Shown here: one piece after another, positions 26,484-46,980 of the stretch | Layout of the letters: each line of letters begins with the position of its first letter | Numbering within the stretch: the first letter of the stretch is position 1 | DNA from: Minisyncoccota bacterium | GTDB lineage: Bacteria > Patescibacteriota > Minisyncoccia > UBA6257 > 02-FULL-45-10c | Length of the DNA: 64,000 bases | Assembly: GCA_028716745.1 (NCBI GenBank) | Contig: JAQUPE010000003.1 | Coordinates: forward strand, 3,779-67,778 | Reading direction: 5' to 3' | Made by a program: the position numbers and the translations under genes | Notes under the pieces: model-generated | What the model saw: only the letters and a program-made list of their open reading frames with translations | Told to the model about the DNA's origin: nothing | Databases searched by the model: none

Positions 26484-27209
26484 ATGCTGATAAAATATCT
26501 TGATTGGGATTCAAAATTCTTCGGATTGAATATAGGAAGCTGCCAGCCGGGAGTTTTTAGCGAAGAAAATCAAAAGATTTTTTGGGAAGAGTTTTCCAAA
26601 AAAGATTTTGATTGCGCTTATCTTTTTTTCTCTCACGAGGATAAGAAGGGAGCCGACTTGGCTTTTAAATTCGGCGGTCTTTATGTCGGCGAGCAGGTTG
26701 TTTATGAAATGCGCCGCGAAGACTGGAAAGGAGATTCTTCGGACGGGAAAAGCGCGGTTTTGGGAAAGATAAGCGAGGCAGAGGATATTCAGCTGTTAAG
26801 CTTGGCGAGAAAACTTTCCGAGACAAGCCGCTTTTTTATGGATCCGAAATTCAGAAGTTTTGCCGCAAAGATGTATGAGATATGGTTTGAAAAGCTGAAG
26901 AACGGAAAAGACAGCATAATAGTGGCAGCGTTCGATGAAGAAAAGAAAATAATAGGATTTATAGGATGCTCAATAACGGGAAATGTCGGGAAGATGGATC
27001 TGGTCGTGGTAAGCGAGAATTGCAGAGGCAAGGGAATCGGGAAGTCGATGATGCGGAAGGCGATGTCTTCGCTTTTTGCCAAAGGAGTGGAAAAAATAAT
27101 AATTGTCACTCAGGCGGAAAACGAAGCGGCCAACAAGCTTTATCAATGGGCCGATTTTAAGCTGAATTTATCGGAGAATAAAAAAATCTACCACCTTTGG
27201 AGGAAATAA
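26484..27209 (+). CDS. GNAT N-acetyltransferase, WecD (dTDP-fucosamine acetyltransferase)-like
   Basis: C-terminal GNAT core VVSENCRGKGIGKSMMRKAM...TQAENEAANKLYQWADF. An N-terminal extra domain as in WecD. The strong SD AAAGGAGAAACT precedes the ATG. Confidence 0.55.
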   Translation: MLIKYLDWDSKFFGLNIGSCQPGVFSEENQKIFWEEFSKKDFDCAYLFFSHEDKKGADLAFKFGGLYVGEQVVYEMRREDWKGDSSDGKSAVLGKISEAEDIQLLSLARKLSETSRFFMDPKFRSFAAKMYEIWFEKLKNGKDSIIVAAFDEEKKIIGFIGCSITGNVGKMDLVVVSENCRGKGIGKSMMRKAMSSLFAKGVEKIIIVTQAENEAANKLYQWADFKLNLSENKKIYHLWRK

Positions 27210-27210
27210 C

Positions 27211-28398
27211 ATGAACAAAAAGAAATTCATTGTTTTCGGAAAGCCGTCGCTGGATAAGGAGGAAATCCGGGCAATTACGGAAGTTTTGAAATCCGGCTGG
27301 ATCGGCATGGGGCCGAAATGCGAAGAGTTTGAAAAGCTCTTTGCAGAATACGTCGGCGCTAAATATGCCGTTTCTGTCAGTTCCTGCACCGCGGCTTTGC
27401 ATCTGGCGCTTTTAGCGGCCGGAGTTGAGCCGGGCGACGAGGTAATCACCACGCCGCTGACTTTTGTGGCGACTATCAACGCCATTGAGTATTGCGGAGC
27501 CAAGCCGGTTTTGGCGGATATCGATCCAAAATCTTTGAACATCAATCCGGAGTTCATCAGAAAAGCAATAACCAAAAAGACCAAAGCAATTCTGCCGGTT
27601 CATTTCGGAGGGTTGCCTTGCGACATGGATTCTATTAACGCCATAGCGCAAGAAAAAGGCCTGGCGGTAATTGAAGACGCGGCGCATGCGGTCGGAGCGG
27701 AATGGCGGGGAGTGAGAATAGGAGGACTAAAAAACTCCATCGCCTGTTTCAGTTTTTATCCGAACAAGAACATGACTTCCATCGAGGGAGGGATGGTAAC
27801 GACTGACAACGCTGAGATAGCGGAGAAGATCAAGATAATGCGCGTGCACGGAATGGACAATGAAGCTTGGAAAAGATACCAGGGCGGAAAGAAACTTATT
27901 CATTCCGAAATGGTGATGCCGGGCTTCAAGTACAATCTGACAGACGCGCAGGCGGCGATAGGAATTTGCCAGCTGAAGAAGCTGGATAAATTTCAGGACA
28001 AGAGGGAGGAGTACGCCGAGATCTACGACGATTATTTTTCCGATGTTTGCGATACGCAAGTCGGCCTTTCCATGGATACGGATTCGGCTGAGTTTCGGAT
28101 CCGCCATGCGCTTCACCTTTACCTGATTCTTCTGAAAACAGAAAAGATGCGCAAGGGGAGGGAAGAAATTCTGCAGGAGATCAGAGATGAAGGAATCGGC
28201 GCAACAATCCATTACCTTCCGGTTCATATGCACCGGTATTACCGCGAAAAATTCGGATTCAAGAAAGGAGACTTTCCTGTAGCCGAAGATGCTTATCAAA
28301 GGATGATTACATTGCCTTTGACGCCTTCAATGACATTGAAAGATGCCAAGAGGGTCGCGGAGACCGTGAAGTGCATCATCGTGACGAACATGAAGTAG
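27211..28398 (+). CDS. DegT/DnrJ/EryC1/StrS-family PLP-dependent sugar aminotransferase (WecE-like)
   Basis: Typical length and layout. SFYPNKNMTSIEGGMV contains the PLP-Lys region. GC-rich relative to flanks. Confidence 0.8.
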   Translation: MNKKKFIVFGKPSLDKEEIRAITEVLKSGWIGMGPKCEEFEKLFAEYVGAKYAVSVSSCTAALHLALLAAGVEPGDEVITTPLTFVATINAIEYCGAKPVLADIDPKSLNINPEFIRKAITKKTKAILPVHFGGLPCDMDSINAIAQEKGLAVIEDAAHAVGAEWRGVRIGGLKNSIACFSFYPNKNMTSIEGGMVTTDNAEIAEKIKIMRVHGMDNEAWKRYQGGKKLIHSEMVMPGFKYNLTDAQAAIGICQLKKLDKFQDKREEYAEIYDDYFSDVCDTQVGLSMDTDSAEFRIRHALHLYLILLKTEKMRKGREEILQEIRDEGIGATIHYLPVHMHRYYREKFGFKKGDFPVAEDAYQRMITLPLTPSMTLKDAKRVAETVKCIIVTNMK

Positions 28399-28413
28399 CA
28401 GCAGCAATTTGCA

Positions 28414-28448
28414 GGCCACCAAACCCTAGTGGGAGAGGTGGCTTTTTA
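28414..28448 (+). terminator. Rho-independent terminator (GGCCACC...GGTGGC + TTTTT)
   Basis: Inverted repeat ggccacc / ggtggc followed by a T-run, just after the aminotransferase stop. Confidence 0.5.
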
Positions 28449-28476
28449 TTTGCGGGAATAGTTATATATTACGCTT

Positions 28477-29652
28477 ATGGATTTAAAGACTAGTAAAATT
28501 AAAGTGGGCATAATGGCCGATGGCTTGGAAAGAAAAGCTATGGGATCAGCGATTTATTTGAGGAATATTATTGAACAGTATCTGGCTGATTTTGGCGATG
28601 AAATTGATTTATATCTGATTTATAAAGAAGGGCAGTGCCAGCACGAGCTTTGCGGGCGCGCCAAAAGCGTTTCGGTAAAAATCTTATCGTTGCCGAAATT
28701 TGCGGGATTTTTTTCTTATTTATGGCTTTTTGTTTCCACAAAAAATAAATTTGATATAATTCATTTTTCTCGTCCGGCACTTCACCCGTTTTTCTGGCTT
28801 TTAAAAGTTTTTGGAAAAACTAAAAAAATTGTTGTGACATTTCATGGCGCTCCGGATAACGCGAGTATTCCGATTTTCCAGACTTTTGCGACCCGTTTTA
28901 ATCGCTGGTTTATAATTTCCTTCGGCAGATTTTTTATAGACGCCGCTCTAGCCGATTCCGAGACGGCGATAAATCAAATTGCCTGGTATTATAAATTTCC
29001 GAAAAATAAAATACATTCTGTTTATTTGGGAATTGGAAAAGAATTTTTACTGGCTTCCGATAAGAATATTTTAAAGAAAAAATTATTGGAAAAATATAAA
29101 ATAAATTTTCCTTATATTTTAGGGATGGGGAGAATGGATCCTCATAAAAATACTCATCGTTTGCTTGAGGCATTTTTTAAATTAAAAAAAGAAGGCTTGC
29201 CGCATGAGCTGATTATAATTGGAGGAGAACATGAGCCGGAATATTCTAATTTGATCAAAGAAATTCTGAACGGTTCGGAATATAAGCAAGCCGTTAAGTT
29301 TATTGATTTTGCTGATGACGAAGACTTGCCGGCGTTTTATTCATTGGCTGATGTTTTTGCTTTTCCGTCTCTTTCGGAAGGATTTGGCTTGCCGGTTTTG
29401 GAGGCAATGGCTTGCGGAACGCCGGTCGTAACATCCAATGCTTCTTGTTTGCCGGAGATAGCAGGAGGAGCGGCTGTTTTAGCTGATCCATACCAAATAG
29501 GAGGAATAGCCGATGCAATCAGGCTTGCTATAAAGGACATAAATTTGAAAAGGGAGCTGGTTTTAAAAGGAATTAAAAGGAGCGGGGATTTTAGCTGGAA
29601 AAAAACGGCTGAAGGAAACTTTAGGCTTTACAAGAGTGTTCTAACTTTATAA
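28477..29652 (+). CDS. GT4 family glycosyltransferase
   Basis: SEGFGLPVLEAMACGTPVVTSNASCLPEIA motif. Confidence 0.7.
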   Translation: MDLKTSKIKVGIMADGLERKAMGSAIYLRNIIEQYLADFGDEIDLYLIYKEGQCQHELCGRAKSVSVKILSLPKFAGFFSYLWLFVSTKNKFDIIHFSRPALHPFFWLLKVFGKTKKIVVTFHGAPDNASIPIFQTFATRFNRWFIISFGRFFIDAALADSETAINQIAWYYKFPKNKIHSVYLGIGKEFLLASDKNILKKKLLEKYKINFPYILGMGRMDPHKNTHRLLEAFFKLKKEGLPHELIIIGGEHEPEYSNLIKEILNGSEYKQAVKFIDFADDEDLPAFYSLADVFAFPSLSEGFGLPVLEAMACGTPVVTSNASCLPEIAGGAAVLADPYQIGGIADAIRLAIKDINLKRELVLKGIKRSGDFSWKKTAEGNFRLYKSVLTL

Positions 29653-29663
29653 GATAAAAACCT

Positions 29664-30731
29664 ATGATTAATCCAAGCACTAAATTAGCGGGAAAAACAG
29701 TTTTAATAACAGGCGGAGCCGGTTTTATTGGTTCGCATTTGTGCGATAAGATTTTGGGTTATGGCGGAAAAGTTATTTGTTTTGATGATCTTTCAACCGG
29801 AAGCAAAGCATATGTTGAATCCCAAAAAGACAATAAAAATTTTACTTTTATAAAAGGAGATGTAAATAAGCTCTCGGATATTCATGTTCCGTTTTTAAAA
29901 CACAGAATAGATTATGTTTTGCATTATGCGGCTTTGGTTGGAGTTCAAAGAACAATAGACGATCCGCTTAGCGTTTTAATTGATATCGACGGAATAAAAA
30001 ATATTTTAGATTTGAGCCATAAGCACGGCGTAAAGAAAATTGTTTATGCCTCTTCTTCGGAAGTTTACGGCAATCAGGAAAAACAGCCGCTTCATGAAGA
30101 TGAATCTTATCTTAATACGCGTATTCCTTACGCAGTTGTAAAAATGGTAGGGGAGCATTATTTGCAGACTTACTGGGAAACAGTAGGACTTCCCTATACC
30201 GCTTTAAGATTTTTCAATGTTTATGGGCCGCGCCAGGAATCTTCCCGTTACGGTTTTGTCGTCGGAGTTTTTATTTCTCAGATACTTCAGGGAAAGAAGC
30301 CGACAATTTTCCACGATGGTTCTCAGACTAGAGATTTTATGTATGTAGAAGACAATGTTGAAGCGGCTATTCAGGCATTGATAAATGAAAAAGCAAATGG
30401 ACACGCCATAAATCTTGGCCATAGCAGAGAAACAAGTATTTTGGAGTTAGCTAAAATGGTGGCAGGCATTGCCGGAAGAAAAGACTTGGAACCAGAATTA
30501 TTTCACGAGAGAGCTTTGGCGGAAATAAAAAGAAGAGTTGCCGATAATAGAAAGATGTTGGAAATTTTGGAATATATACCAAAGCATAATTTAGAAAGCG
30601 GTTTAAAATTAACTTTTGATTGGTACAAACAAAATCCTAAATTGACAATGAGCGATGAAAAACAAACCTTTAAAAAATATAGTGAACAAGTTTGGATCCC
30701 TAGAGATGCTAAGGAAACAGATGCTAAATAA
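29664..30731 (+). CDS. NAD-dependent epimerase/dehydratase (SDR; UDP-sugar 4,6-dehydratase/4-epimerase-like)
   Basis: [11 protein letters not shown] Rossmann motif and catalytic YxxxK (PYAVVK). Confidence 0.75.
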   Translation: MINPSTKLAGKTVLITGGAGFIGSHLCDKILGYGGKVICFDDLSTGSKAYVESQKDNKNFTFIKGDVNKLSDIHVPFLKHRIDYVLHYAALVGVQRTIDDPLSVLIDIDGIKNILDLSHKHGVKKIVYASSSEVYGNQEKQPLHEDESYLNTRIPYAVVKMVGEHYLQTYWETVGLPYTALRFFNVYGPRQESSRYGFVVGVFISQILQGKKPTIFHDGSQTRDFMYVEDNVEAAIQALINEKANGHAINLGHSRETSILELAKMVAGIAGRKDLEPELFHERALAEIKRRVADNRKMLEILEYIPKHNLESGLKLTFDWYKQNPKLTMSDEKQTFKKYSEQVWIPRDAKETDAK

Positions 30732-32022
30732 ACCGGCTATTCTGGGCGGAAAGCCGACTTTAGATAAACCGCTTCCGCCATACAACTCAATAGGCAGGGA
30801 AGAGATTGGCGCAATAAACAGGCTTTTAAAGAGCGGGAAAGACCTTTCCGGTTTTTTGGGGCGCGGAGGAGAAAAATTTTTAGGCGGTCCATATGTTAAA
30901 AAGCTTGAGAACGATTTTGAAAAAAAGTTCGGCGTTAACTATGCCGTGAGTTTTAATTCGGCCACTACGGCTTTGCAGGCGGCTGTTGCTGCTTTGGGAA
31001 TTGGGCCGGGCGATCAGGTTATTACGTCTCCATTTACTATGCCGGCAACAGCAACGGCTATTTTGTTTAATAATGCTGTACCGGTTTTTGCGGATATAGA
31101 TCCGAAAACTTATTGTTTGAGCGCCGAATCGATTGCCAAAAAAATCACCAAAAAAACAAAAGCTATTTTAATAGTCAATATTTTCGGCGGAACTCCGGAT
31201 TATGTTCCTATTTTAAAATTGGCCAAAAAACATAATTTAAAAATTATTGAGGACAGTGCGCAGGCGCCGGGCGCTAATTATCGCGGAAAATTTGCCGGCA
31301 CTATCGGCGATATCGGAGTTTACAGTTTTAATGTCCATAAAGTTATCCAAGTTGGAGAAGGGGGAATGATGGTTACAAACAACAAGCGTTATGCTTACAG
31401 GGCTCAATTAATGAGAAATCACGGCGAAGCGGTGATGGATGATGTGTGGGAGAAAGAACCGAAGACCAGAGAATTAATTGCGGGAAATAATTTCCGTTTG
31501 ACGGAGCTTCAGGCTGCGGTAATGGCGGAGCAATTTAAAAAATTGGACAAATTGAATAATCAAAGAATTATGTTGGCAGATTATTTAACCAAGAAATTAA
31601 AAAAGTTTTCTTGGCTGGAGCCAGCCAGCGTTTTGCCGAACAGCAAACACGTCTATTATCTTTACCCGATTAAGTTTTTTTCCGGCAAGCTCGGAATTTC
31701 CAGAAAAACTTTTGCAAAGGCTATGGAGGCTGAAGGGTTTAAGCTGGCCGAAGGATACCAGAAGCCTATTTATCTTATGCCGATTTATCAAAAGAAAAGA
31801 ATTTATGAACGCTCTCAATTCCCGTTTGTTTCAAAAGAATTTTCCCAAAATATTTCTTATAAAAAAGGAGATTGTCCGGTTGCCGAGAGAATGTTCGAAA
31901 AAGAATTTTTAACTACTACTTTATGCCAGCCGCCGAAAAATAAAGCGCATATAGATTTGTTTATTAAGGCGCTGCAAAAAATAGGAGACAGCGCCGGCTT
32001 GCTGAAAAAATATGAGAAATAA
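30721..32022 (+). CDS. DegT/DnrJ/EryC1/StrS-family PLP-dependent sugar aminotransferase (PseC/PglE-like)
   Basis: Start moved to MLNKPAILGGKPT (ATG at 30721, overlapping the upstream stop). DegT-family layout with SFNVHKVIQVGEGGMM. Confidence 0.75.
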   Translation: MLNKPAILGGKPTLDKPLPPYNSIGREEIGAINRLLKSGKDLSGFLGRGGEKFLGGPYVKKLENDFEKKFGVNYAVSFNSATTALQAAVAALGIGPGDQVITSPFTMPATATAILFNNAVPVFADIDPKTYCLSAESIAKKITKKTKAILIVNIFGGTPDYVPILKLAKKHNLKIIEDSAQAPGANYRGKFAGTIGDIGVYSFNVHKVIQVGEGGMMVTNNKRYAYRAQLMRNHGEAVMDDVWEKEPKTRELIAGNNFRLTELQAAVMAEQFKKLDKLNNQRIMLADYLTKKLKKFSWLEPASVLPNSKHVYYLYPIKFFSGKLGISRKTFAKAMEAEGFKLAEGYQKPIYLMPIYQKKRIYERSQFPFVSKEFSQNISYKKGDCPVAERMFEKEFLTTTLCQPPKNKAHIDLFIKALQKIGDSAGLLKKYEK

Positions 32023-32932
32023 AGAAAAAATTTTAGTTTTTTGCCATGATGCCGGCGGGGCAGAAATAATTTCTTCATATATTAAACACAATCTGGATAA
32101 GTATGATTTTATCTGTTTGCCGATTGGTCCGGCGAAGGCGGTTTTTGCAAAGAAAAAACTTAATTACTTAATTCCAAAACAAAAGAATCCTTATAAATAT
32201 TTAGCCTTAAAAGACCTAAAAATGGTATTGCTTGGAACAAGCTGGATTAATTTCGAGTGGCTTAAGCTTATTGAGAAGGCCAAGAAAATGGGGATTAAAG
32301 CCGTGGTCTATCTGGATCACTGGATGAATTATAGAGGGCGCTTCAAAGCTAATTATTCCGAGAAGAATTTTCCTAGCGAATTTTGGACGGGAGACAAGCA
32401 TGCTTTTTATCTGGCAAAAAAAGTGTTTCCGGACAGAATGGTCAAGCTTGAGCCAAATTGTTATTTCAAAGATATTAAAAAAGAATTTAAAAATAAAAAA
32501 GGGGCTTATAAGGGTAGGGCAAATAAAGTTTTATTTTTAAGCGATCCAACCAGCGTTTTTTGGAAGAGAGCAAAAATAAGATTTAATGAGATGGATCTTT
32601 TGGGAAAGATATTAAAATGCTTGTCCGATAAAAATAAGGAGAGGGAAGTGATTATTCGCTTTCACCCCTCTGATGATAGGACAAAATATAAAGAAATTTT
32701 AAAAAAATACTCGGGCAGGGTTAAAATAATCAAATCTTCCAATAAAGATATTCTAGATGATATAGTTAAGGCAGGAATAGTAATCGGGCTGGAAAGCATG
32801 TCTCAAGTTATTTCTTATTTATGCGGAAAGAAAACAATAAGCTGCTCGTTCAATCCAAAGAGGAAGTGCACGCTGCCGTTTCCAGGAATTATAAAAATAG
32901 AAAATTTGGATAAATTAAATAAATATTTATAA
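32012..32932 (+). CDS. Hypothetical protein, possibly GT-B/PseG-like UDP-sugar hydrolase or transferase
   Basis: 306 aa with no clear motif. Alternating beta-alpha pattern in two halves. Embedded in the nonulosonic-acid gene set. Confidence 0.25.
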   Translation: MRNKEKILVFCHDAGGAEIISSYIKHNLDKYDFICLPIGPAKAVFAKKKLNYLIPKQKNPYKYLALKDLKMVLLGTSWINFEWLKLIEKAKKMGIKAVVYLDHWMNYRGRFKANYSEKNFPSEFWTGDKHAFYLAKKVFPDRMVKLEPNCYFKDIKKEFKNKKGAYKGRANKVLFLSDPTSVFWKRAKIRFNEMDLLGKILKCLSDKNKEREVIIRFHPSDDRTKYKEILKKYSGRVKIIKSSNKDILDDIVKAGIVIGLESMSQVISYLCGKKTISCSFNPKRKCTLPFPGIIKIENLDKLNKYL

Positions 32933-32935: not shown

Positions 32936-34219
32936 ATGAGAGAGTTTCTAAATAAAACAGCTGATTTAAACAGATCCATTGTGTCTGATGATTTTGAAAA
33001 GACTTTAGAAATTATAAACAAAAGAATTCCTCTAAAGATATTTTCATATCCATCAGGAAAATTGTGTTTTGATTGGGAGATTCCAAAAAAATGGGTTATT
33101 AGGGGCGCTTATATAAAAGATGAATCCGGGAAAAAGATTGTAGATTTTAAAGACAGTCCGTTACATGTAGTTACTGGGTCCTTGCCGATAAATAAAAGAA
33201 TGTCTCGAGAGGAATTGCTTAAAAAGGTTTATGTTTCGGAAAAATATCCGGAAACGATTCCTTATGTTTTTAAATTTTATGAATTGGATTGGGGCTTTTG
33301 CATGACTAAGAAGCAAAAAGACAGCCTTAAAGGAAATTTTTTTGATGTCGCTATAGATTCGGAATATGTAAATGGCAATTTATTGGTGGGAGAACATATT
33401 ATAAAAGGGGAAAGCGACAAAAGCATAGTGTTATTAAGTCATATTGACCATCCGGGTCAGGTAAATGACGGCTTAGCGGGAGCGGCCGTGATGATACGGC
33501 TGGCGGAAATGCTGAAAGGAACTAAGCCTGCTCTTACTTTGAGGTTCCAGTTTTTGTCGGAAAGAATCGGATCGATAGCTTATTTAAGCCAGCATTATAA
33601 GCAGAAAGATAAAATTCTTGGAGGAATTTTTTGTGAAATGCCGGGAACGCCTAAATATCCGATGGTTTTGCAATATTCAAGAAATAAAAGCGCGAGATTG
33701 GATAGGGCAGCTAAATATGTTTTGGAAAAAACCGGAAAGAAAATAGGATTTGGAGAATGTTTTAGGCATGTGGCGAACGATGACGCTTTTTATAATAGCC
33801 CAGGTGTTGATATTCCATGCATTTCTCTTTCCAGGTCAAAGCCGTTAGTTGAGGGCGACTGGTATCATTTTCCTTACTATCATACCAGCGGAGACAATAT
33901 TAAAAATTTTGATTTTAAACAGGCGGAAGAATATTTGGAGATTTTGAAAGAAATTATATCTATAATCGATAAAGACAGAATCATAACTAGAAATTATGTC
34001 GGCGTGCCCCATCTCTCAAGGCATAAATTATGGATTGACTGGCGGCTCTTCCCGAAATCATCCAGAGGAATTTATAGATTGCTTGAAGAACTGGATAATG
34101 GCGTATCAATATTTGATCTTAGTGAAAAATGCGGAGTAGATTTTGAAGAAGCATACGAGTTTATAAAGAAAATGGAAAAATCAAAATTAGTAAAATTAAG
34201 TTTAATCAAGTCGATTTAA
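32936..34219 (+). CDS. Hypothetical protein with an M28-like aminopeptidase-fold domain (DUF4910/DUF2172-like) and a C-terminal winged-helix-like segment
   Basis: HIDHPGQVNDGLAGAAVMIRLAEML resembles the metal-binding region of M28-fold proteins. This architecture is recurrently found in polysaccharide loci. Confidence 0.35.
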   Translation: MREFLNKTADLNRSIVSDDFEKTLEIINKRIPLKIFSYPSGKLCFDWEIPKKWVIRGAYIKDESGKKIVDFKDSPLHVVTGSLPINKRMSREELLKKVYVSEKYPETIPYVFKFYELDWGFCMTKKQKDSLKGNFFDVAIDSEYVNGNLLVGEHIIKGESDKSIVLLSHIDHPGQVNDGLAGAAVMIRLAEMLKGTKPALTLRFQFLSERIGSIAYLSQHYKQKDKILGGIFCEMPGTPKYPMVLQYSRNKSARLDRAAKYVLEKTGKKIGFGECFRHVANDDAFYNSPGVDIPCISLSRSKPLVEGDWYHFPYYHTSGDNIKNFDFKQAEEYLEILKEIISIIDKDRIITRNYVGVPHLSRHKLWIDWRLFPKSSRGIYRLLEELDNGVSIFDLSEKCGVDFEEAYEFIKKMEKSKLVKLSLIKSI

Positions 34220-34232
34220 TAAAAATAAAAAA

Positions 34233-35033
34233 ATGAAAATAGCATTATTAACAGGAACGGCATATCGCCATAAATATTATGCAAATGAAATTATCGCTAA
34301 TTACGATGTGGTTTTGCATATAAAAGAAAAAAGAGAACAAGATTTAACAGGGGAGGTAAAAGACCCTTGTTCGGAAGAAGATAAAATATTGCTTAAAAAA
34401 CACAGCGATCTTAGAAATCAGATGGAGGAGAAATATTTTCTTCCGCAAGGCAAAGATTTTTTGCCGGTAAAGAAAACAATGGAAGTTGGAAGGAGGGAAT
34501 TGAATTCTCCGGAGGTTATAGCGGCCGTTAAGGAAGCTGCTCCGGATGTGGTTTTGGATTATGGCACATGCCTTTTAAAGGATGATTTGCTCAAAGTAAT
34601 GCCTAAACACGTTATAAACCTTCACGCCGGACTTTCCCCTTATTATAAGGGGGCGGCGACGCTTTATTGGCCTATTTATTTCATGGAGCCGCAAAATCTT
34701 GGATATACAATGCACATTATTGATATACAGATAGACCACGGAACTATTCTTCATCAGAACAAGCCGGAAATTTTTTCTAACGACAATATCCATGATCTTG
34801 GATGCAGGACTATTGTTCAGGCGGCGAAAGACATCCATAAAGTGCTGGAGAAAATACAGAATGGTACCATCCAATATTTCAAGCAAAAATCCAAGGGAAA
34901 AATATTTTATGGCTATGATTTTAAGCCGTATCATCTCAGGGTAACTAATTTTATTATGGAAAACGGATTGCTTAAAGAATATTTGGAACACAAAGAGCGT
35001 TTCCCGGAAGCGGAAATTTTCCGCCAATTTTAA
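34233..35033 (+). CDS. Formyltransferase-domain protein (sugar N-formyltransferase candidate)
   Basis: NLHAGLSPYYKGAATLYW matches the N-x-H-x-S-L-L-P-x-x-[RK]-G formyl-transferase (Fmt/PurN/ArnA-N) signature. The downstream acidic/His segment HIIDIQIDHGTI is consistent with the catalytic Asp region. Confidence 0.55.
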   Translation: MKIALLTGTAYRHKYYANEIIANYDVVLHIKEKREQDLTGEVKDPCSEEDKILLKKHSDLRNQMEEKYFLPQGKDFLPVKKTMEVGRRELNSPEVIAAVKEAAPDVVLDYGTCLLKDDLLKVMPKHVINLHAGLSPYYKGAATLYWPIYFMEPQNLGYTMHIIDIQIDHGTILHQNKPEIFSNDNIHDLGCRTIVQAAKDIHKVLEKIQNGTIQYFKQKSKGKIFYGYDFKPYHLRVTNFIMENGLLKEYLEHKERFPEAEIFRQF

Positions 35034-35034
35034 G

Positions 35035-35781
35035 ATGGAAAAAGTTATCTGTATAATTCAGGCGCGTACCGGATCTACGCGTTTATCGAATAAAATTTTC
35101 TTGCCGCTTCAGGGTAAGCCGGTTTTATTAAGAGTGATAGAAAGAGTTTTCCAATCAAAATATATCAGCGGAGTGGTGGTAGCGACGACAGTTAATCCTA
35201 ATGACGAGAAAATAGTTGAATTGCTTAAAAATTATGATTCAAGAGTAAGTGTTTATCGCGGTTCGGAAGAAGACGTACTAGACAGATATTATCAGGCCGC
35301 GAAAGGAGTGGGCGCGGATATTGTCGTGCGAATAACTTCGGATAATCCCTGCGTTGACCCTGACGTAATAGATAAAATTATCGGAGAAGTTTTAGCCGAT
35401 CCGGAATTAGAATACGCCTCCAACAATATTGGCGAACATACTTATCCGAGAGGATTAGATACGGAAGTAATTCGTTTTAAAACTTTGGAAAAATTATGGA
35501 AAACAACTACGGAAAAAATAGACAGAGAGCACGTAACAATTCATTTAAAAAGATTCCCCGATAATTTTAAATGGAAAACGGTTTTAAACGATATCGATTT
35601 ATCTTCATATCGTTTAACTGTGGATGTTGATAAGGATTATGAATTGGTAAAAACTATTTATGACCGGCTATATCCGGTTAATCCGAAATTCAGGCTAGAG
35701 GACATAATGGATTTATTTAAAAAGGAGCCGGAGCTGATAAAAATTAATCAGGATATTGAACAGCAAAATGCCAAATATTAA
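35035..35781 (+). CDS. Cytidylyltransferase, SpsF/PseF/NeuA-type (CMP-nonulosonate or CMP-Kdo synthetase family)
   Basis: N-terminal ICIIQARTGSTRLSNKIFLPL is the CTP_transf_3 signature (AR.GS.RLP.K). Confidence 0.65.
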   Translation: MEKVICIIQARTGSTRLSNKIFLPLQGKPVLLRVIERVFQSKYISGVVVATTVNPNDEKIVELLKNYDSRVSVYRGSEEDVLDRYYQAAKGVGADIVVRITSDNPCVDPDVIDKIIGEVLADPELEYASNNIGEHTYPRGLDTEVIRFKTLEKLWKTTTEKIDREHVTIHLKRFPDNFKWKTVLNDIDLSSYRLTVDVDKDYELVKTIYDRLYPVNPKFRLEDIMDLFKKEPELIKINQDIEQQNAKY

Positions 35782-36712
35782 ACCTGTTATTTGCGGAGTT
35801 TGCGGTAAGTCCGCCAACCTTAACTTTAAAGAAGACTTTAAAGAATATTCGCTTTGGGAATGCCCGGAATGTTTCGGCCAGTTTTGGTCCCCAATGAAAG
35901 GGCCGGGAGCGGGGTGGTATGAAAAGGATGAAAGGTATTCTTTTAGAAATTTAAATCCTTTGGAAAAACCGGAACGCAATCATCGGGAATTTTTGCGCGA
36001 CTTGCCGGCAAAAGGAGGCAGGCTTTTGGATATCGGAATGGGAACGGGAAATTTTTTGGCCGCAGCTGTAAAAAGCGGCTATGACGGATATGGAGTTGAT
36101 TTTGATAGCGAGGCCATAGAAACAGCCAAAAGAGTTTTTGGCCTTAAAAATGTTTCAACCGGAGATTTGGACGGCGTTCTAAAAGATTTTGGAGAAAAAA
36201 GCTTTGATATCGTTACGATGTTTGAGGTTGTGGAACATCTTGAAAATCCGGCGGAATTTATTGAAAAATCAAAGAGGCTTTTAAAAAATGGCGGATATTT
36301 GGCGATAAGCGTGCCTTTCCGCGGAGCGGCTGAATTTTTAAAGCCGAATGATAAGCCCCCGCGCCATCTGACGCGATGGGATAAAAATTCGATGGAAAAC
36401 TTTTTAAAAGAACACGAATTTGAAACGGCTAGAATTAAAATTATTAAAGCACCTATTTCTTATTTAATTACAAAATTTCATTTTTGGACAAGAGGATTTT
36501 TAAGTTTTAACGCGGTCGGCAAATTATCGGCTGTTCCAGCGGGGCAAAAAGCAGTTAATAATAAAGTTTCTTTGAGGGCGAGAGTGATTCAAAAAATGGC
36601 CAGAATAAAAGATTATATTTTATTCTTATTGCCGGCGATTATTCTTTCGGGTATTTTGCTTGTTACCGGCCGCAATGGGCTCGGGTTATATATTTTAGCT
36701 AAGAAAAAATGA
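35768..36712 (+). CDS. Class I SAM methyltransferase with N-terminal zinc-ribbon
   Basis: CGVCG...CPEC (4-Cys ribbon), LLDIGMGTGNFL (motif I), FDIVTMFEVVEHLENP and NGGYLAISVP. Confidence 0.6.
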   Translation: MPNIKPVICGVCGKSANLNFKEDFKEYSLWECPECFGQFWSPMKGPGAGWYEKDERYSFRNLNPLEKPERNHREFLRDLPAKGGRLLDIGMGTGNFLAAAVKSGYDGYGVDFDSEAIETAKRVFGLKNVSTGDLDGVLKDFGEKSFDIVTMFEVVEHLENPAEFIEKSKRLLKNGGYLAISVPFRGAAEFLKPNDKPPRHLTRWDKNSMENFLKEHEFETARIKIIKAPISYLITKFHFWTRGFLSFNAVGKLSAVPAGQKAVNNKVSLRARVIQKMARIKDYILFLLPAIILSGILLVTGRNGLGLYILAKKK

Positions 36713-37926
36713 AGCATAAAGGAACGAAGAAAACAATTAAATTGGGAAATAAATTAATCGGCTGGGGACAGCCGTGTTTTATCGTTGCCGAAGCGGGAGC
36801 TAATCATGATGGAGATTTTGAAAAAGCTAAAATGTTAATTGACGCAGCAGCTGCGGTTAATGCCGATTCAATAAAATTTCAGCATTATCTTGCGGACAAG
36901 CTGGCGTCGCGGGAAGCAAAAAGATATTGGGTTGTAAGAGGAGACGAGCCGGGTTTTCAGTTTGATCCGAATAATTATAAAGATGATCAGGTAGATACTT
37001 TTAAAAAGATAGACGGTATTCCGCGCCATAGAGACAGCGAGCTTTTTGATTATGCCGATAAAAAAGGATTATTAATGTTTTCGACTCCTTTTGATTTCGA
37101 AAGCGTTGATCATTTGGACAGCCTGGGAATACAGATGTATAAAATTGCATCCGGAGACCTAACTTATCATCAGCTGCTTGATTATGTGGCGCGCAAAGGC
37201 AAGCCGGTTGTTCTATCGACAGGCGCGGCAGACATGGACGAAATTCGGGCAGCGGTTGATGTAATAAAAAAAGCGGGCAACAATCAGATTATTCTTTTGC
37301 ATTGCACTTTGGCTTACACTACGCCGCTGGAAAATGCCAATCTTTTGATGATTCGAAATTTACAGGAAGAATTTCCAGATGAGCTTATTGGATTTTCTGA
37401 TCATACGCCCGGCATTGAAGCCGATATTGCAGCAGCTTTGCTTGGAGCGGTGATGATAGAAAAGCATTTTACTCATACGCCGGGAGCGGCAGTGGGAGAA
37501 AACAGGGTTGGCGATAGCCCCGATCATGATATTGGAATTGGTTCGGCGGCTTTTGAAGAAAAAATAAAAAGAATCAGAGAGCATGAAGGAAAAAATTTAA
37601 GCGTTCGTTTGGGACTTGATTTTGAAAAGGCGCTGGAAATGATAAGTGAACTGGGAATAGAAAAAACGTTAGGCTCGCATCAAATTAAGCAGGTTGATTC
37701 CAAGGTGGAATTAAAGGCGCGTTTACAGGCGAGAAGAAGCGTAGTTACCGAAGTTCCGCTCAAAAAAGGAGAGACGCTGACGCAGAAGTTTATTAATGCC
37801 GGAAACCTGTCTTTTAAAAGGCCGGGCACAGGAATACCGCCTTACGAGATTTGTAAGCTTGCCGGAAAAAAATTAAACCGCGATTTGTCGGCGGACGCGG
37901 TTTTAAAGTGGGAATATTTTAAATAA
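36709..37926 (+). CDS. Nonulosonic acid synthase (NeuB/PseI/LegI family) with C-terminal SAF domain
   Basis: IGWGQPCFIVAEAGANHDGDFEKAKMLIDAA...SIKFQHY is the NeuB TIM-barrel signature. The C-terminal ~70 aa are SAF/antifreeze-like. Confidence 0.75.
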   Translation: MKHKGTKKTIKLGNKLIGWGQPCFIVAEAGANHDGDFEKAKMLIDAAAAVNADSIKFQHYLADKLASREAKRYWVVRGDEPGFQFDPNNYKDDQVDTFKKIDGIPRHRDSELFDYADKKGLLMFSTPFDFESVDHLDSLGIQMYKIASGDLTYHQLLDYVARKGKPVVLSTGAADMDEIRAAVDVIKKAGNNQIILLHCTLAYTTPLENANLLMIRNLQEEFPDELIGFSDHTPGIEADIAAALLGAVMIEKHFTHTPGAAVGENRVGDSPDHDIGIGSAAFEEKIKRIREHEGKNLSVRLGLDFEKALEMISELGIEKTLGSHQIKQVDSKVELKARLQARRSVVTEVPLKKGETLTQKFINAGNLSFKRPGTGIPPYEICKLAGKKLNRDLSADAVLKWEYFK

Positions 37927-38499
37927 ATGAACGAAGAAGATTTTATAAAATTGTTGGCCTTTATTGCCAATGAAAGGCCTGAGCGCGCGGACGCTATTGT
38001 TTTTATTGAAGGAGACGGCGGTTCGGATGTTAAGGCGGCCGTTGATTTATACCGTGCGAAATTTGCTCCGAAAATTTTGATAACCGGAGAAATTAAAAGG
38101 GGAAGCAAATCGCGTGTTTTGGGCGTGTTTAAAAAAATGATTAAGCTTGGCGTCCCGGAAAAAAATATAATTATGGAATTTAATTCCGTCAGTGCGCGCG
38201 AACAGGCGATAGAAGTTTTAAAAATTGCCAAGGAGTTGAAATGGAAAAAAATAATTTTAACGGCTCCTCTTTATCACCAGCCTCGTCTTTACGCGACGTT
38301 TATCAGGAGAATGAAAGAAGTTGGATTGAATTTAAAAATCGTAAATTGTCCGATAAGAGAATTGCCGTGGTTTAAAAAGACTATTCACGGGAAAAGAATA
38401 GATCTTTTGAAAACGGAACTGAATAAAATTAAAAAATATGCCAAGAAAGAACATGTAGCGAGCCTTAAAGAAATAACGGAATATGAAAGAAAAAAATAA
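37927..38499 (+). CDS. Hypothetical Rossmann-like protein (DUF218/YdcF-like?)
   Basis: 190 aa with an alternating beta-alpha pattern (AIVFIEGDGG...ILITGE). No definitive motif. Confidence 0.25.
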   Translation: MNEEDFIKLLAFIANERPERADAIVFIEGDGGSDVKAAVDLYRAKFAPKILITGEIKRGSKSRVLGVFKKMIKLGVPEKNIIMEFNSVSAREQAIEVLKIAKELKWKKIILTAPLYHQPRLYATFIRRMKEVGLNLKIVNCPIRELPWFKKTIHGKRIDLLKTELNKIKKYAKKEHVASLKEITEYERKK

Positions 38500-38599
38500 A
38501 GCTCAAATGCTTTATTTTTTTGTGACTAAATGATTGACTTTTGTGTTAAATTATTATATAAACTATGAACGAACTTTGAAAACAAGAGGAGAAATATTT

Positions 38600-39376
38600 A
38601 TGAAAATAATAGCTGTTATCCAAGCAAAAGTAGGTTCAAAGCGTTTACCCAACAAGGCATTTGAAAAGGTTGCCGGCGTTCCGTCAATTGACCATGTCAT
38701 AGACAGAGTTTTGCGGTCAAAAGAAATTGACGGCGTGGCGATAGCCACTTCAAGCGCGGAGGGAAATGAAATTTTTGAATCCAAGGCGCAGGAAAAAAAT
38801 ATCGGATGCTTTCGCGGTTCGGAGAGCGACATTTTAGAGAGGCTCTATCTGACTGCGAAAAAATTCGGGGCCGACGTGATTTTGAGGATTACGGGCGATT
38901 CGCCTTTTGTTGATCCTCATGTAATCGATCAGCTGGTTTCCGAATACAGGAAAAGGAGCGGGGAAATAGTTTTCGCTTCCACCTGTCTTCCGATGACTTT
39001 TCCAGAGGGGCTGAGCATGGAGCTGGTGTCTTTTTCTGTTTTGGAGAAGTTAAATAAAGAGATGACTGATCCGAACGAAAGAGGAACTTTCATGCTTTAC
39101 ATCAGCAGGAATCCCGAGAAATTTCCGCGTTATGCCCTGAAGTATAAGAAAGATGCCAGCCGTATCAGGCTGACTCTGGATTATCCGGAGGATCTGATTC
39201 TGGCAAGGAGAATCTACGATTACTTCTACGGACATAACAAGAAGCATTTCGGGCTGGACGAGGTGATAAGCCTTCTGGAAAAAAATCCAGGATGGGTAGA
39301 GATTAATCAGCATCGCGCCGACAGGAGCAAGTATCCTTTCGTGTACGATAAAGAGGCGGAATTAAAAGCGCTCTAA
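38600..39376 (+). CDS. Cytidylyltransferase, SpsF/PseF-type, second copy
   Basis: Start moved to MKIIAVIQAKVGSKRLPNKAF (RBS AGGAGA upstream). Same CTP_transf_3 signature as the 35035 gene. Confidence 0.65.
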   Translation: MKIIAVIQAKVGSKRLPNKAFEKVAGVPSIDHVIDRVLRSKEIDGVAIATSSAEGNEIFESKAQEKNIGCFRGSESDILERLYLTAKKFGADVILRITGDSPFVDPHVIDQLVSEYRKRSGEIVFASTCLPMTFPEGLSMELVSFSVLEKLNKEMTDPNERGTFMLYISRNPEKFPRYALKYKKDASRIRLTLDYPEDLILARRIYDYFYGHNKKHFGLDEVISLLEKNPGWVEINQHRADRSKYPFVYDKEAELKAL

Positions 39377-39386
39377 GGAGAAAAAA

Positions 39387-39971
39387 ATGAAAGACACAAT
39401 GTTTTTAAAAGGACGATCGATTTTTCTTCGTCCGGTTGAATCAGCAGATATTCCCAAGATAGCGTCGTGGCTCAACAATCCGAAAATCACGCATTTCATG
39501 TTCTACGGCCAGCTTCCAATGAATCTGGAACAGACCGGGGAATTCGTGATGGGCCAGGTGAGGTCTCCGCATAACACGGTGTTTGTGGTTTGCGATTTGA
39601 AAAGCCGCAAGCCGATAGGTTATGCCGGGCTTTATGATATTCATCTGACGGCCCACAAAGCGGAATTTCGGGTTCTGATAGGCGAGCAGCGTTTCTGGGG
39701 CAAGGGCTGCGGTACGGAAGTGACAAAGCTTCTTACCTTCTACGGATTTGACCGGCTGAACCTGAACAAGGTTTATCTGGGAGTCGTTGCGGACAACCAG
39801 AGAGCGGTCAAGAGTTACGAAAAATCCGGATATGTCCGCGAGGGCGCGCTGAGGGAAGAAGTTTACCGCAACAGCCGCTACTACGACGTTGTGAAGATGA
39901 GTATCCTGAAGAAGGAATACTACAAAAAGATTTACAGGGAACACCTGGAAATCTTCGGCAAGGAGAACTAA
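39387..39971 (+). CDS. GNAT family N-acetyltransferase (RimL/PseH-like)
   Basis: LRPVESADIPKIASWLNNP (N-terminal GNAT) and RVLIGEQRFWGKGCGTEV (acetyl-CoA binding motif A). GC-rich segment. Confidence 0.55.
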   Translation: MKDTMFLKGRSIFLRPVESADIPKIASWLNNPKITHFMFYGQLPMNLEQTGEFVMGQVRSPHNTVFVVCDLKSRKPIGYAGLYDIHLTAHKAEFRVLIGEQRFWGKGCGTEVTKLLTFYGFDRLNLNKVYLGVVADNQRAVKSYEKSGYVREGALREEVYRNSRYYDVVKMSILKKEYYKKIYREHLEIFGKEN

Positions 39972-46979: not shown

Positions 46980-46980
46980 T

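Follow-up and report, generated by a model that had tools for sequence, protein, structure and literature searches.

A probable legionaminic-acid-type nonulosonate pathway with tailoring genes in a surface-glycan locus of a Minisyncoccota bacterium

The closest published analogue of the locus described here is the cluster legB-legF-legC-deacetylase-formyltransferase-neuB-legF-legG of Ca. Kuenenia stuttgartiensis; equipped with two legF genes, a deacetylase and a formyltransferase, Ca. Kuenenia makes formylated, free-amine and methylated (+14 Da) CMP-nonulosonic acids (CMP-NulOs) (bioRxiv 10.64898/2026.04.20.719630). Halorubrum, which carries a legionaminic acid (Leg) cluster with a formyltransferase, produces 5-N-formyl-Leg (PMC6137143). 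SpsE is genetically required in Leg synthesis, and SpsF, a putative cytidylyltransferase, is needed to transfer Leg to the forespore surface (PMC7439481); DUF4910 is associated with spsE/spsF by gene neighbourhood across 10 bacterial clades (PMC4000134). BFO_1060 is an orthologue of the T. forsythia transferases for derivatives of pseudaminic acid (Pse) and Leg (PMC5420450).

Gene layout and conservation

The locus lies in a window (the whole stretch of DNA analysed) of 64,000 nucleotides from a Minisyncoccota bacterium; its genes are listed in Table 1 and named by their start positions. It is fairly likely to encode a Leg-type pathway to a 5,7-diamino-3,5,7,9-tetradeoxy-nonulosonic acid, with tailoring, within a Wzx/Wzy-type CPR surface-glycan locus, and the product is probably formylated or methylated. 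The pathway is a variant of a known one, not a system of a new kind. The original prediction, a NulO sub-cluster yielding a decorated CMP-nonulosonate, is supported in outline by protein families, catalytic motifs, synteny and precedents, but needs changes in detail.

Table 1. Genes of the NulO region, by position in the window
Position	Strand	Assignment	Basis
26484..27209	+	GNAT acetyltransferase, weakly WecD-like	Pfam Acetyltransf_1
27211..28398	+	DegT aminotransferase, PseC/ArnB/PglE-like class	Pfam DegT, 449 bits
28477..29652	+	GT4 glycosyltransferase	Glycos_transf_1, 119 bits
29664..30731	+	Extended SDR, LegB (4,6-dehydratase) slot	Pfam Epimerase, 200 bits
30721..32022	+	DegT aminotransferase, 425-441 aa class, LegC slot	DegT, 300 bits
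32012..32932	+	Compact GT-B protein, LegG/NeuC slot, 306 aa	AF2 model, hhalign
32936..34219	+	DUF4910/DUF2172/M28-like protein, CA_C2195 family	Pfam DUF4910, DUF2172, Peptidase_M28
34233..35033	+	N-formyltransferase, catalytic domain only	Formyl_trans_N, 55 bits
35035..35781	+	SpsF-type cytidylyltransferase (CTP1)	CTP_transf_3, 116 bits
35768..36712	+	SAM methyltransferase, class I	Methyltransf_23, 77 bits
36709..37926	+	NeuB-family NulO synthase with SAF domain	Pfam NeuB, 229 bits; SAF
37927..38499	+	DUF218 protein, directly after NeuB	Pfam DUF218
38600..39376	+	SpsF-type cytidylyltransferase (CTP2)	CTP_transf_3, 92 bits
39387..39971	+	GNAT N-acetyltransferase, PseH/SpeG-like class, LegH/SpsD slot	Acetyltransf_3, 82 bits
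39999..41006	+	Gfo/Idh/MocA oxidoreductase, PtmF-like position	Pfam
40984..42084	+	Second Gfo/Idh/MocA oxidoreductase	Pfam, synteny
42162..43649	+	B12-binding radical SAM protein, possible C-methylase	Pfam
43656..46979	+	AsnB-type glutamine amidotransferase fused to BFO_1060-like GT-B domain	Asn_synthase, GATase
46957..48333	+	Second BFO_1060-like putative NulO transferase, tandem paralogue	NF046086, 64 bits
48330..49556	+	Wzx-type flippase	Polysacc_synt

All 14 ORFs predicted earlier were found at their coordinates, on the plus strand and nearly abutting; the internal starts of 30721, 35768 and 38600 were also called independently on a Logan contig of identical sequence (offset 30615). The GT4 gene at 28477 was missing from the earlier list. 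Pfam matched the domains assigned to these ORFs, except for 32012, which gave no significant Pfam match and no direct match to Epimerase_2, and the Pfam family set is complete (NeuB with SAF, two DegT, SDR, GNAT, two CTP_transf_3, Formyl_trans_N). None of the enzymes reached the NCBIfam equivalog cut-offs for Pse, Leg and Neu (PseB/C/H/I/F and LegB/C models); the scores assign them to families but do not settle stereochemistry or substrates.

Gene content and order repeat in six other CPR loci, and the grouping is therefore not due to chance. All six keep the GT4 (49-54%, same position), SDR, DegT, GT-B, NeuB, CTP2, two to three Gfo/Idh/MocA genes and AsnB. The genes for DUF4910, the formyltransferase and CTP1 are jointly present in five of the six and jointly absent from L002. 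DUF218 is found in five of the six, and adjoins NeuB in the unrelated locus L016 as well.

Comparison with related loci also redraws both ends of the cluster. The original prediction had counted 26484 and 27211 as core members; they probably form a separate amino-sugar branch outside the NulO core, which for 26484 would be a 4-amino-sugar branch. Acetyltransferase 26484 scored 58 bits with the NCBIfam model for dTDP-4-amino-4,6-dideoxygalactose acyltransferase, far under cut-off, and had no counterpart in the synteny comparison with the six CPR loci. Aminotransferase 27211 has the PLP lysine motif SFYPNK; its orthologues (41-56% identity) lie upstream of the GT4 gene in five of the six, and in L008 there is only a 31% match, to the other aminotransferase. 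Downstream, the cluster had been closed at 39971, but the NulO pathway goes on past this point, and the conserved block continues to ~48.3 kb.

Core and tailoring enzymes

The original prediction described 29664 as a 4,6-dehydratase-like SDR. It is an extended SDR in the LegB slot, but 4-epimerases score equally well: it reached 172 bits with GalE, 166 with RmlB, 165 with LegB and 44 with PseB, all under the NCBIfam cut-offs, and its closest solved structures are 4-epimerases. The motifs SSSE(V/I)YG and YAxxK are kept among its orthologues (58-64% identity, all six CPR loci). Aminotransferase 30721 (PLP lysine motif SFNVHK) scored 223 bits with PseC and 183 with the LegC family in NCBIfam, and its orthologues share 50-67% in the CPR loci and 41-58% in L011-L016.

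Protein 32012 had been left as unknown. Its AF2 model has a GT-B fold (pLDDT 87.5), and in hhalign it matched the same-slot proteins of the sister loci with 100% probability (E 7.7e-40), all six of which match Pfam Epimerase_2; against the BFO-like transferases the probability was just 84%. It is therefore placed as a divergent relative of the UDP-GlcNAc 2-epimerase type, a putative nucleotide-sugar hydrolase/2-epimerase. A polysialyltransferase came top among its fold matches, and Pfam gave no direct Epimerase_2 match, so it could instead be a transferase; the hydrolase step would then have no assigned enzyme.

Synthase 36709 carries a SAF domain and falls in the NeuB family rather than among the Kdo8P and DAHP synthases, the grouping that had been named as counting against a NulO cluster. 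E28, K56, Q58, H198 and H232 are kept and are invariant in the alignment; the protein falls within a CPR-restricted subclade of ~400 aa with four insertions. Acetyltransferase 39387 (orthologues 52-60%) scored 74 bits with SpeG and 70 with PseH (cut-off 93) in NCBIfam, and ~75 bits with SpeG and 29 with PseH (4ri1) against PDB.

Both cytidylyltransferases keep ARxGSxRL and RITxDxPxVD (RITSDNPCVD in CTP1). CTP1, whose homologues carry the JGI name SpsF, forms a distinct orthogroup; CTP2 is its paralogue (40% identity), with an orthogroup found in all six CPR loci. A grouping with CMP-Kdo synthetases, which had also been named as counting against a NulO cluster, is not supported: KdsB models matched over the N-terminal half only and far under cut-off, whereas the SpsF-type structure 6oew was matched over the full length (137 bits for CTP1). 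The earlier suggestion that two cytidylyltransferases serve two different activated sugars is a plausible hypothesis.

The tailoring set begins with 32936 (197 bits with PDB 3k9t), possibly an amidase/deacylase or transacylase. The best PDB matches of 34233 are sugar N-formyltransferases (ArnA, GDP-perosamine FT, VioF, PseJ), of which PseJ (PDB 6ci2) is a solved formyltransferase with a Pse-pathway name and a precedent for tailoring. The protein keeps the Asn-His-Asp triad (N129-H131...D168); identity to the sister-locus formyltransferases is only 21-31%. Methyltransferase 35768 begins with a CxxC..CxxC region and has a hydrophobic C-terminus; in L004 and L008, its orthologues are flanked by CTP1 and NeuB.

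From homology and synteny, we infer a route in which SDR 29664 would 4,6-dehydrate a nucleotide-linked GlcNAc and DegT 30721 would transaminate C4; the new amine would be acylated, with acetyl by 39387 or with formyl by 34233. GT-B protein 32012 would strip the nucleotide and epimerise C2, NeuB would condense the 6-deoxy-hexose with PEP, and an SpsF-type cytidylyltransferase would form the CMP-sugar. The DUF4910 protein, formyltransferase, methyltransferase and CTP1 would be an accessory set for a second CMP-NulO, formylated and/or methylated and possibly de-N-acetylated.

Legionaminic acid and alternative products

The sequence evidence leans towards Leg over Pse because NeuB scored 274 bits with NeuB_NnaB and 235 with PseI, with B. 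subtilis SpsE (1vli, 168 bits) as its best solved relative; because the SDR scores higher with LegB than with PseB; because the hydrolase-slot protein belongs to the Epimerase_2 and not the PseG lineage; and because the cytidylyltransferase-oxidoreductase neighbours mirror LegF-PtmF. LegF adjoins PtmF in classical Leg clusters (PMC4481668), whereas the oxidoreductase here is of the Gfo/Idh/MocA family; CTP_transf_3 adjoins Gfo in L011, L012, L014, L015 and L016. It is unlikely that the same enzymes make a pseudaminic (L-glycero-L-manno) or other non-Leg product (4- or 8-epi-Leg, Aci-like), with 32012 as a PseG-like hydrolase without 2-epimerisation. PseC is the top model of both DegT proteins (392 bits for 27211, cut-off 423.5), 39387 matches PseH, 32012 is PseG-sized with PseG 3hbm among its fold matches, the SDR matches include B. 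thuringiensis Pal of the Pse pathway (140 bits), and two Gfo/Idh/MocA proteins could provide redox epimerisations; yet the PseB score is low, PseI ranks below NeuB/SpsE, and the GT-B slot orthologues are Epimerase_2, not Glyco_tran_28_C.

Two further readings divide the genes differently. That one SpsF-type cytidylyltransferase acts early, like Campylobacter PtmE, to form a dedicated cytidine-linked hexosamine precursor later hydrolysed by the GT-B family of 32012, we regard as distinctly unlikely. Two paralogues accompany a single NeuB in Kuenenia and in L011 and L012, the latter two despite having no DUF4910 or formyltransferase; Pfam found no PtmE-type nucleotidyltransferase in the window; another bacterium showed CMP-linked HexNAc-like species without a keto acid; and a different nucleotide handle would lead one to expect the highly divergent hydrolase-slot enzyme. 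However, cytidylyltransferases of SpsF-type fold activate 2-keto-3-deoxy acids, and the sole such enzyme near NeuB is CTP2-type in L002 and CTP1-type in L013, which suggests that both types can be CMP-NulO synthetases. Improbable, even with its two versions taken together, is that formyltransferase, DUF4910 and CTP1 (perhaps also the SDR and a DegT) serve another sugar: either an Arn-like 4-formamido-4-deoxy sugar for polyprenyl-phosphate carriers and the upstream GT-C (PMT_2) transferases, or, with the SDR as a UDP-GlcA decarboxylase, a C8 rather than C9 acid from NeuB. ArnA N-terminal domains are the best formyltransferase matches, 27211 scored 389 bits with ArnB, the SDR matches include human UXS (137 bits), its SSSEVYG/STSEVYG resembles the UXS/ArnA motif TSEVYG, and UGD-like genes are present in the window together with GT2s and three PMT_2 GT-C proteins. 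Against this, scores with the ArnA, ArnB and UXS models all fall far short of cut-off; in five loci the three genes come after the DegT/GT-B genes and before NeuB; formyltransferases also adjoin NeuB where the loci are unrelated, in one case as a fusion with a PseH-like GNAT (elsewhere a PIG-L deacetylase is the neighbour); and the published formylated NulOs come from clusters built in a similar way.

Downstream genes and transfer

In the Leg-type reading, the Gfo/Idh/MocA pair, AsnB, the radical SAM protein and DUF218 would be conserved parts of the system. Gene 39999 is conserved in all six CPR loci; 40984 scored 88 bits, under cut-off, with the NCBIfam archaeal UDP-GlcNAc 3-dehydrogenase; and 42162 has orthologues (49-52%) in four of the six. 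Protein 43656 reached 412 bits with TIGR01536 and matches BFO_1060_trans over its C-terminal part; its two parts are adjacent separate genes in related loci. The C-terminal part and 46957 share 60% protein identity and 70-90% DNA identity. The BFO_1060-like GT-B proteins of the window (64-66 bits on NF046086) are putative NulO transferases, and these two, one of them AsnB-fused, would put the NulO(s) onto the glycan. In L002, which gave no match to a BFO_1060-like transferase in the six-locus comparison, the flippase orthologue directly follows AsnB; in L004 and L006 it comes after the transferase gene. The surface-glycan locus around the NulO genes is very large.

The glycan locus and its conserved unit

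The entire 64-kb window is a single glycan locus, and it holds what we judge, with moderate confidence, to be a legionaminic-acid-type (Leg) system for the biosynthesis, activation and transfer of a nonulosonic acid (NulO) with formyl and methyl tailoring, i.e. a variation on a pathway class that is well known. The glycan genes of the window comprise GT4 and GT2 transferases, several methyltransferases, a Bac_transf initiating transferase, two Wzx-type flippases and one Wzy_C/TPR protein, in addition to the features collected in the table, in which ORFs are designated by their start positions. The NeuB-family synthase (ORF 36709) shares 100% identity with a protein entered at NCBI for the MAG of a 'Candidatus Pacebacteria bacterium' (CPR/Patescibacteria).

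Features of the glycan locus, with positions in the window and the profile evidence
Position	Feature	Evidence
3995, 17310, 20963	PMT_2 (GT-C) proteins (n = 3)	
9082, 12008, 15889; 42162 (downstream)	B12-binding radical-SAM proteins (five in the window)	
19996	LPG_synthase_TM protein	
26484	GNAT acetyltransferase	Pfam
27211	DegT aminotransferase	Pfam, 449 bits
28477	GT4 glycosyltransferase	
29664	Extended SDR	Pfam
30721	DegT aminotransferase	Pfam, 300 bits
32012	GT-B protein, 306 aa	
32936	DUF4910 + DUF2172 + Peptidase_M28	Pfam
34233	Formyl_trans_N	Pfam, PF00551, 54.7 bits
35035	CTP_transf_3 (CTP1)	Pfam, PF02348, 116 bits, above cut-off
35768	Class I methyltransferase, N-terminal CxxC..CxxC	Pfam
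36709	NeuB TIM-barrel + C-terminal SAF	Pfam, PF03102, 229 bits; PF08666, 24.9 bits
37927	DUF218	Pfam
38600	CTP_transf_3 (CTP2)	Pfam, PF02348, 92 bits, above cut-off
39387	GNAT acetyltransferase	Pfam
43656	AsnB in frame with a BFO_1060-like GT-B domain, 1107 aa	
to 48333	Tandem paralogue of the BFO_1060-like domain	
49604-50440	Short UDP-glucose-dehydrogenase-like protein	

The stretch 3200-26400 belongs to the same giant glycan locus (at least eight GT4, four GT2, and four or five methyltransferase genes). The GC content is 0.45-0.475 at 26000-28000 and 40000-44000, compared with 0.35-0.40 elsewhere; these patches, which correspond to GNAT 26484 and DegT 27211, and to two Gfo/Idh/MocA genes and a radical-SAM gene, suggest a mosaic origin. 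Long antisense shadow ORFs at 39441-40673 and 42141-43208 arise from the GC-rich patches and are unlikely to be genes. A 781-aa ORF at 8-2353 had no Pfam match at E <= 1e-5, and a promoter/terminator scan gave a result at chance level.

The region 26484-39971, put forward in the original prediction as a sub-cluster for a pseudaminic/legionaminic-acid-type (Pse/Leg) NulO, comprises 14 nearly abutting ORFs in one direction. Every domain that had been named there was borne out by Pfam, and the internal starts 30721, 35768 and 38600 are those also called independently on a 12.8-kb Logan contig of identical sequence; missing from the otherwise confirmed list of ORFs was the GT4 glycosyltransferase at 28477.

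Synteny was examined by tblastn, with every ORF of the window compared with six related CPR loci, and by the gene calls of these loci; the genome collection contributed three close loci, each from a CPR MAG. Two distant loci with a NeuB of only 30% identity were left out (L010, with only distant matches to DegT and cytidylyltransferase besides; L009, with nothing else). The conserved CPR core comprises the GT4, the SDR, the 30721-type DegT, the GT-B protein, NeuB, CTP2, at least two Gfo/Idh/MocA proteins, and AsnB; DUF218, the 39387-type GNAT and a BFO-like 445-aa protein are each present in five of the six loci, and Wzx was matched in three. DUF4910, formyltransferase and CTP1 occur together in five loci and are jointly absent from the sixth (L002), and in two of the six the methyltransferase gene separates CTP1 from NeuB. 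The functional unit thus extends from ~28.4 kb to ~48.3-49.6 kb, which differs from the span originally drawn (26484-39971) and reaches further downstream.

A recurrent module, consisting of CTP_transf_3, Gfo/Idh/MocA, a 425-441-aa DegT, a GNAT or formyltransferase, and a 32012-like protein, was found near NeuB in the further loci L011 and L012 (both on ~1-Mb contigs), L014, L015 and L016; the 90%-identity cluster of the L016 protein includes NCBI entries named Candidatus Marinimicrobia. PtmF is a Gfo/Idh/MocA protein. The position of CTP_transf_3 beside Gfo/Idh/MocA mirrors the adjacency of LegF and PtmF in classical Leg clusters (PMC4481668). In locus L015, NeuB is accompanied by DUF4910, a formyltransferase and a PseG-like gene; in L016, NeuB adjoins DUF218, and the locus also has a PIG-L deacetylase and a protein in which a formyltransferase is fused to a GNAT. 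NeuB is thus regularly accompanied by formyltransferases, deacylase-like proteins and DUF218.

Proposed synthesis and activation of the nonulosonate

The best solved relative of synthase 36709 is SpsE of B. subtilis (1vli, 168 bits, full length), followed by N. meningitidis NeuB (139 bits) and a PseI (132 bits), and close homologues bear JGI 'legionaminate synthase' labels. Residues E28, K56, Q58, H198 and H232 are invariant in the NeuB alignment, and the metal/PEP residues align with the motifs CEIGINHEG, KHQ, LLHCT and SDHT of N. meningitidis NeuB; the Glu, the Lys-x-Gln and the two His correspond to the residues that bind metal and PEP in 1XUZ. The protein stays below the cut-offs of the N-acetylneuraminate synthase equivalog (TIGR03569, NeuB_NnaB; 274 bits, cut-off 399.65) and of PseI (TIGR03586; 235 bits, cut-off 340.25). 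It belongs to a subclade of ~400-aa NeuB proteins (~24 members at 58-67% identity, the next proteins reaching only 42-44%), which is set apart by four insertions, with the catalytic residues still invariant. A grouping with Kdo8P or DAHP synthases, which had been named among the results that would speak against a NulO assignment, is rejected on the NeuB+SAF, SpsE-like make-up of the protein. In B. subtilis, genetic evidence shows that legionaminic acid synthesis depends on SpsE (PMC7439481).

Profile searches against the Pse/Leg families confirmed matches at the family level, but none of the enzymes reached an NCBIfam equivalog cut-off. SDR 29664 scored 172 bits with GalE, 166 bits with RmlB and 165 bits with LegB (TIGR04180, cut-off 475), and its nearest solved structures are 4-epimerases; the model TIGR03589 for PseB-type inverting 4,6-dehydratases (cut-off 408) gave 44 bits for 29664 and 55 bits for ORF 54175. 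Among extended SDRs, dehydratases and decarboxylases, rather than GalE-type epimerases, typically carry a Glu two residues past the catalytic Ser/Thr. The orthologues of 29664 keep SSSE(V/I)YG or STSEVYG, plus YAxxK, and from the Glu of this motif we infer a dehydratase/decarboxylase-like rather than a GalE-type enzyme.

DegT 27211 and DegT 30721 scored 392 and 223 bits with PseC (cut-off 423.5), the DegT proteins 247 and 183 bits with the LegC family TIGR04181 (cut-off 420), and GNAT 39387 70 bits with PseH (cut-off 93). The pairing of 27211 with a GT4, and in L002 and L004 also with another SDR, suggests a separate amino-sugar branch; for GNAT 26484 there was no counterpart beyond the window among the six CPR loci compared.

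No NeuC/LegG or PseG was called in the region, and of the ORFs scanned (150 aa or longer, window 1-58.7 kb) none matched Glyco_tran_28_C. The expected position is occupied by GT-B protein 32012, which itself has no Pfam Epimerase_2 match and belongs to a family without a Pfam model; it has only weak matches, to a polysialyltransferase, TIGR04396 and BFO_1060. A word-indexed search yielded 17 homologues, and an exhaustive profile search (E <= 1e-3) 5,682 cluster representatives, almost all of them of ~300 aa; the few named members are 'hypothetical', with one 'polysialyltransferase family glycosyltransferase'. The AlphaFold model has a GT-B fold (pLDDT 87.5), and its Foldseek matches are a non-discriminating mixture of polysialyltransferase, MurG, WecB/NeuC 2-epimerases and PseG (3hbm, at rank 20). 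At the level of sequence, the comparison with the sister loci is decisive for the lineage: the same-slot proteins of all six related loci match Pfam Epimerase_2 (passing or approaching the threshold; best E 4.9e-10), and the 32012 family aligns with them over the full length (hhalign probability 100%, E 7.7e-40). Because of these slot orthologues and the full-length alignment, 32012 is probably a strongly diverged, Epimerase_2-lineage putative nucleotide-sugar hydrolase/2-epimerase; its earlier listing as an unknown holds for the lack of a Pfam assignment of its own, but not for its lineage. For 32012, paralogy with the BFO-like transferases is a weak alternative (hhalign 84%, E 7.5e-6, versus 7.7e-40 for the Epimerase_2-type slot proteins). 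A further family member forms the N-terminal third of a 906-aa protein (P0344) on a 70-kb Logan contig; its remainder has no Pfam match, and the fusion might point to a partner of the 32012 family.

The two cytidylyltransferases, CTP1 and CTP2, are paralogues (40% identical) with the nucleotide-binding motifs kept in both; their full-length match is PDB 6oew ('Cytidylyltransferase', 137 bits), and homologues are labelled 'SpsF' by JGI. They scored 34 and 26 bits with PseF (cut-off 206). Against CMP-Kdo synthetase (KdsB) they reached 42-73 bits over the N-terminal half only (cut-offs 155-281), in comparison with the full-length SpsF-type match, and the original concern that they might be CMP-Kdo synthetases can be set aside. 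Pairwise identities define a CTP1-type (44-70%), a CTP2-type (42-48%), and a third type in L011 and L012. Over the 10 kb examined to either side, L002 has a CTP2-type as its sole cytidylyltransferase, and L013 a CTP1-type, which immediately adjoins NeuB. A constant association of CTP1 with DUF4910 and formyltransferase was rejected, as L011, L012 and L013 have CTP1-types without them.

The simplest reading of these sequences is that both types are putative CMP-NulO synthetases, and that the two copies in the window would serve two differently N-acylated NulOs, in keeping with the two activated sugars originally proposed. A fully cytidine-linked Leg-type pathway, in which one SpsF-like paralogue acts early, as PtmE does in Campylobacter, appears rather unlikely to us: the early paralogue would make a dedicated cytidine-linked hexosamine and the other the final CMP-NulO, and the 32012 family would represent a new class of nucleotide-sugar hydrolase/2-epimerase fitted to the cytidine handle. 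The presence of two paralogues with one NeuB, and without DUF4910 or formyltransferase, in L011 and L012 is consistent with such an early role; the occurrence of either type as the sole cytidylyltransferase, one of them beside NeuB, is consistent with the reading of both as CMP-NulO synthetases. In a variant of this unlikely pathway, the conserved triad of Gfo/Idh/MocA, 430-aa DegT and acyltransferase might add an extra amino group to the sugar.

Putative tailoring genes and the downstream block

An active-site check of formyltransferase 34233 found the Asn-His-Asp triad intact (N129-x-H131...D168, in the conserved motifs NLHAGLSPYYKG and IDHGTI). Its best structure matches are sugar N-formyltransferases, PseJ among them (PDB 6ci2); the match to the latter is 33 bits only, and 34233 has an ~80-aa N-terminal extension before the Pfam match. 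As with PseJ, and with Halorubrum sp. PV6, which produces 5-N-formyl-Leg and whose Leg cluster contains a predicted formyltransferase (PMC6137143), a stand-alone Formyl_trans_N protein lies inside a NulO cluster. By its context and by published precedents, 34233 is a candidate for formylating a NulO-pathway amino sugar in its nucleotide-linked form.

DUF4910 protein 32936 matches PDB 3k9t (CA_C2195) with 197 bits. The neighbourhoods of CA_C2195/DUF4910 genes include spsE, spsF, an epimerase, a methyltransferase and N-acetyltransferases, and the family has been proposed to be a transacylase or amidase, not a peptidase (PMC4000134); the C. acetobutylicum context of CA_C2195 differs from the window by a Maf-like transferase, an ATP-grasp protein and an ACP. 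DUF218 protein 37927 directly adjoins NeuB in the CPR loci, as does its counterpart in L016 (15197-15763), and this adjacency suggests that DUF218 proteins have a so far unnoticed function in NulO pathways. Also in L016 (15756-16909), a single 371-aa protein combines Formyl_trans_N, Formyl_trans_C_2 and a PseH-like GNAT; it adjoins the PIG-L deacetylase, DUF218 and NeuB, and ties formylation to acetylation of the NulO precursor.

In the downstream block, AsnB and the GT-B protein, which are joined in ORF 43656, are separate genes in the related loci; the fusion could be genuine, or a single-base assembly error in the MAG. If genuine, it suggests that AsnB may act on the NulO or on its acceptor. 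In two 32012-like loci (L014, 11705-14250; L015, 8923-11409), an unknown protein of 374-388 aa is followed by HisH-like and HisF-like genes, a set which resembles the acetamidino-forming trio. The CPR loci have AsnB in place of the HisH/HisF trio, and AsnB may be a single-polypeptide analogue.

The two tandem BFO-like paralogues scored 64-66 bits with NF046086 (cut-off 200), over the C-terminal half only; they share 60% protein identity and 70-90% DNA identity, with 90% over the first 174 nt. BFO_1060 is an orthologue of genetically proven transferases for Pse/Leg derivatives in T. forsythia, and the window resembles Tanf_01245/TFUB4_00887/BFO_1060 in having GT-B proteins of similar size (~445-458 aa) directly downstream of the NulO genes (PMC5420450). 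The window differs in holding two putative transferases in tandem, one of them fused to AsnB. The UDP-glucose-dehydrogenase-like protein that follows (273-278 aa, N-terminal and central domains without the C-terminal domain) was also found in L011 (14466-15299) and L012 (12519-13340); the short form is probably real, not a fragment, because it is kept in three loci.

Relation to known nonulosonate systems

The Pse/Leg-like reading of the original prediction was right in kind, i.e. as to NulO making, activation and transfer with formyl and methyl tailoring, but Leg fits better than Pse. Compared by described gene order, the closest published architecture is that of Ca. Kuenenia stuttgartiensis, for which a 2026 preprint reports CMP-NulOs bearing a formylated and a free amine plus an additional 14 Da and assigns them to the cluster legB-legF-legC-deacetylase-formyltransferase-neuB-legF-legG (bioRxiv 10.64898/2026.04.20.719630). 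Common to both, between early and late genes, are a single NeuB, two LegF-type genes, a formyltransferase and a putative de-acylating enzyme; the family of the 'deacetylase' is not given in that paper, and the candidate in the window is the DUF4910/M28-like protein. The window has in addition DUF218, two Gfo/Idh/MocA proteins, AsnB, and a B12-radical-SAM protein. The tailoring set appears to parallel the recently described anammox cluster, and the window represents a second, independent case of two LegF plus a formyltransferase, which are tied in the anammox organism to formylated/free-amine NulOs.

With the sps cluster of B. subtilis, whose SpsD is a GNAT, the window shares a GNAT in place of the LegH-type (NeuD/O-acetyltransferase-like) N-acetyltransferase. 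Further likenesses to sps (SpsM, C, D, G, E, F; PMC7439481) are the SpsE relative and the SpsF-type cytidylyltransferases, SpsF being a putative cytidylyltransferase that is needed to transfer Leg onto the forespore surface (PMC7439481). In contrast to sps, the window has a short extended SDR as putative dehydratase where sps has SpsM/PglF-like SpsM, and its hydrolase slot is occupied by a GT-B protein of Epimerase_2 descent instead of SpsG; tailoring genes and a second cytidylyltransferase are added. The CMP-Leg pathways of C. jejuni and Plesiomonas (LegB, C, H, G, I, F plus PtmA, E, F) have the same six enzyme classes; Campylobacter also has a cytidylyltransferase beside an oxidoreductase (LegF-PtmF), and produces methylated or amidino-modified Leg derivatives. 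Unlike these pathways, the window has no PtmE nucleotidyltransferase and no NeuC-grade LegG, its proteins stay below the LegB and LegC models, and its acyltransferase is a GNAT or formyltransferase, not LegH.

The locus is notable for its CPR host, for its distinct NeuB subclade, for the GT-B family, large and as yet uncharacterised, that occupies the LegG slot, and for its tailoring set. CPR/Patescibacteria are ultra-small, mostly episymbiotic organisms with genomes of ~1 Mb, and sialic-acid-like sugars usually cap surface glycans and govern the recognition of host, phage and partner cell; NulO sugars are therefore good candidates for mediating the attachment of CPR cells to their hosts. A full-text literature search, of incomplete coverage, found no paper tying nonulosonic acids to Patescibacteria. 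The locus gives testable roles to families that travel with NeuB across phyla, i.e. the 32012-type GT-B proteins, DUF4910 and DUF218. Surface-glycan genes over more than 50 kb in a ~1-Mb genome are an unusual investment.
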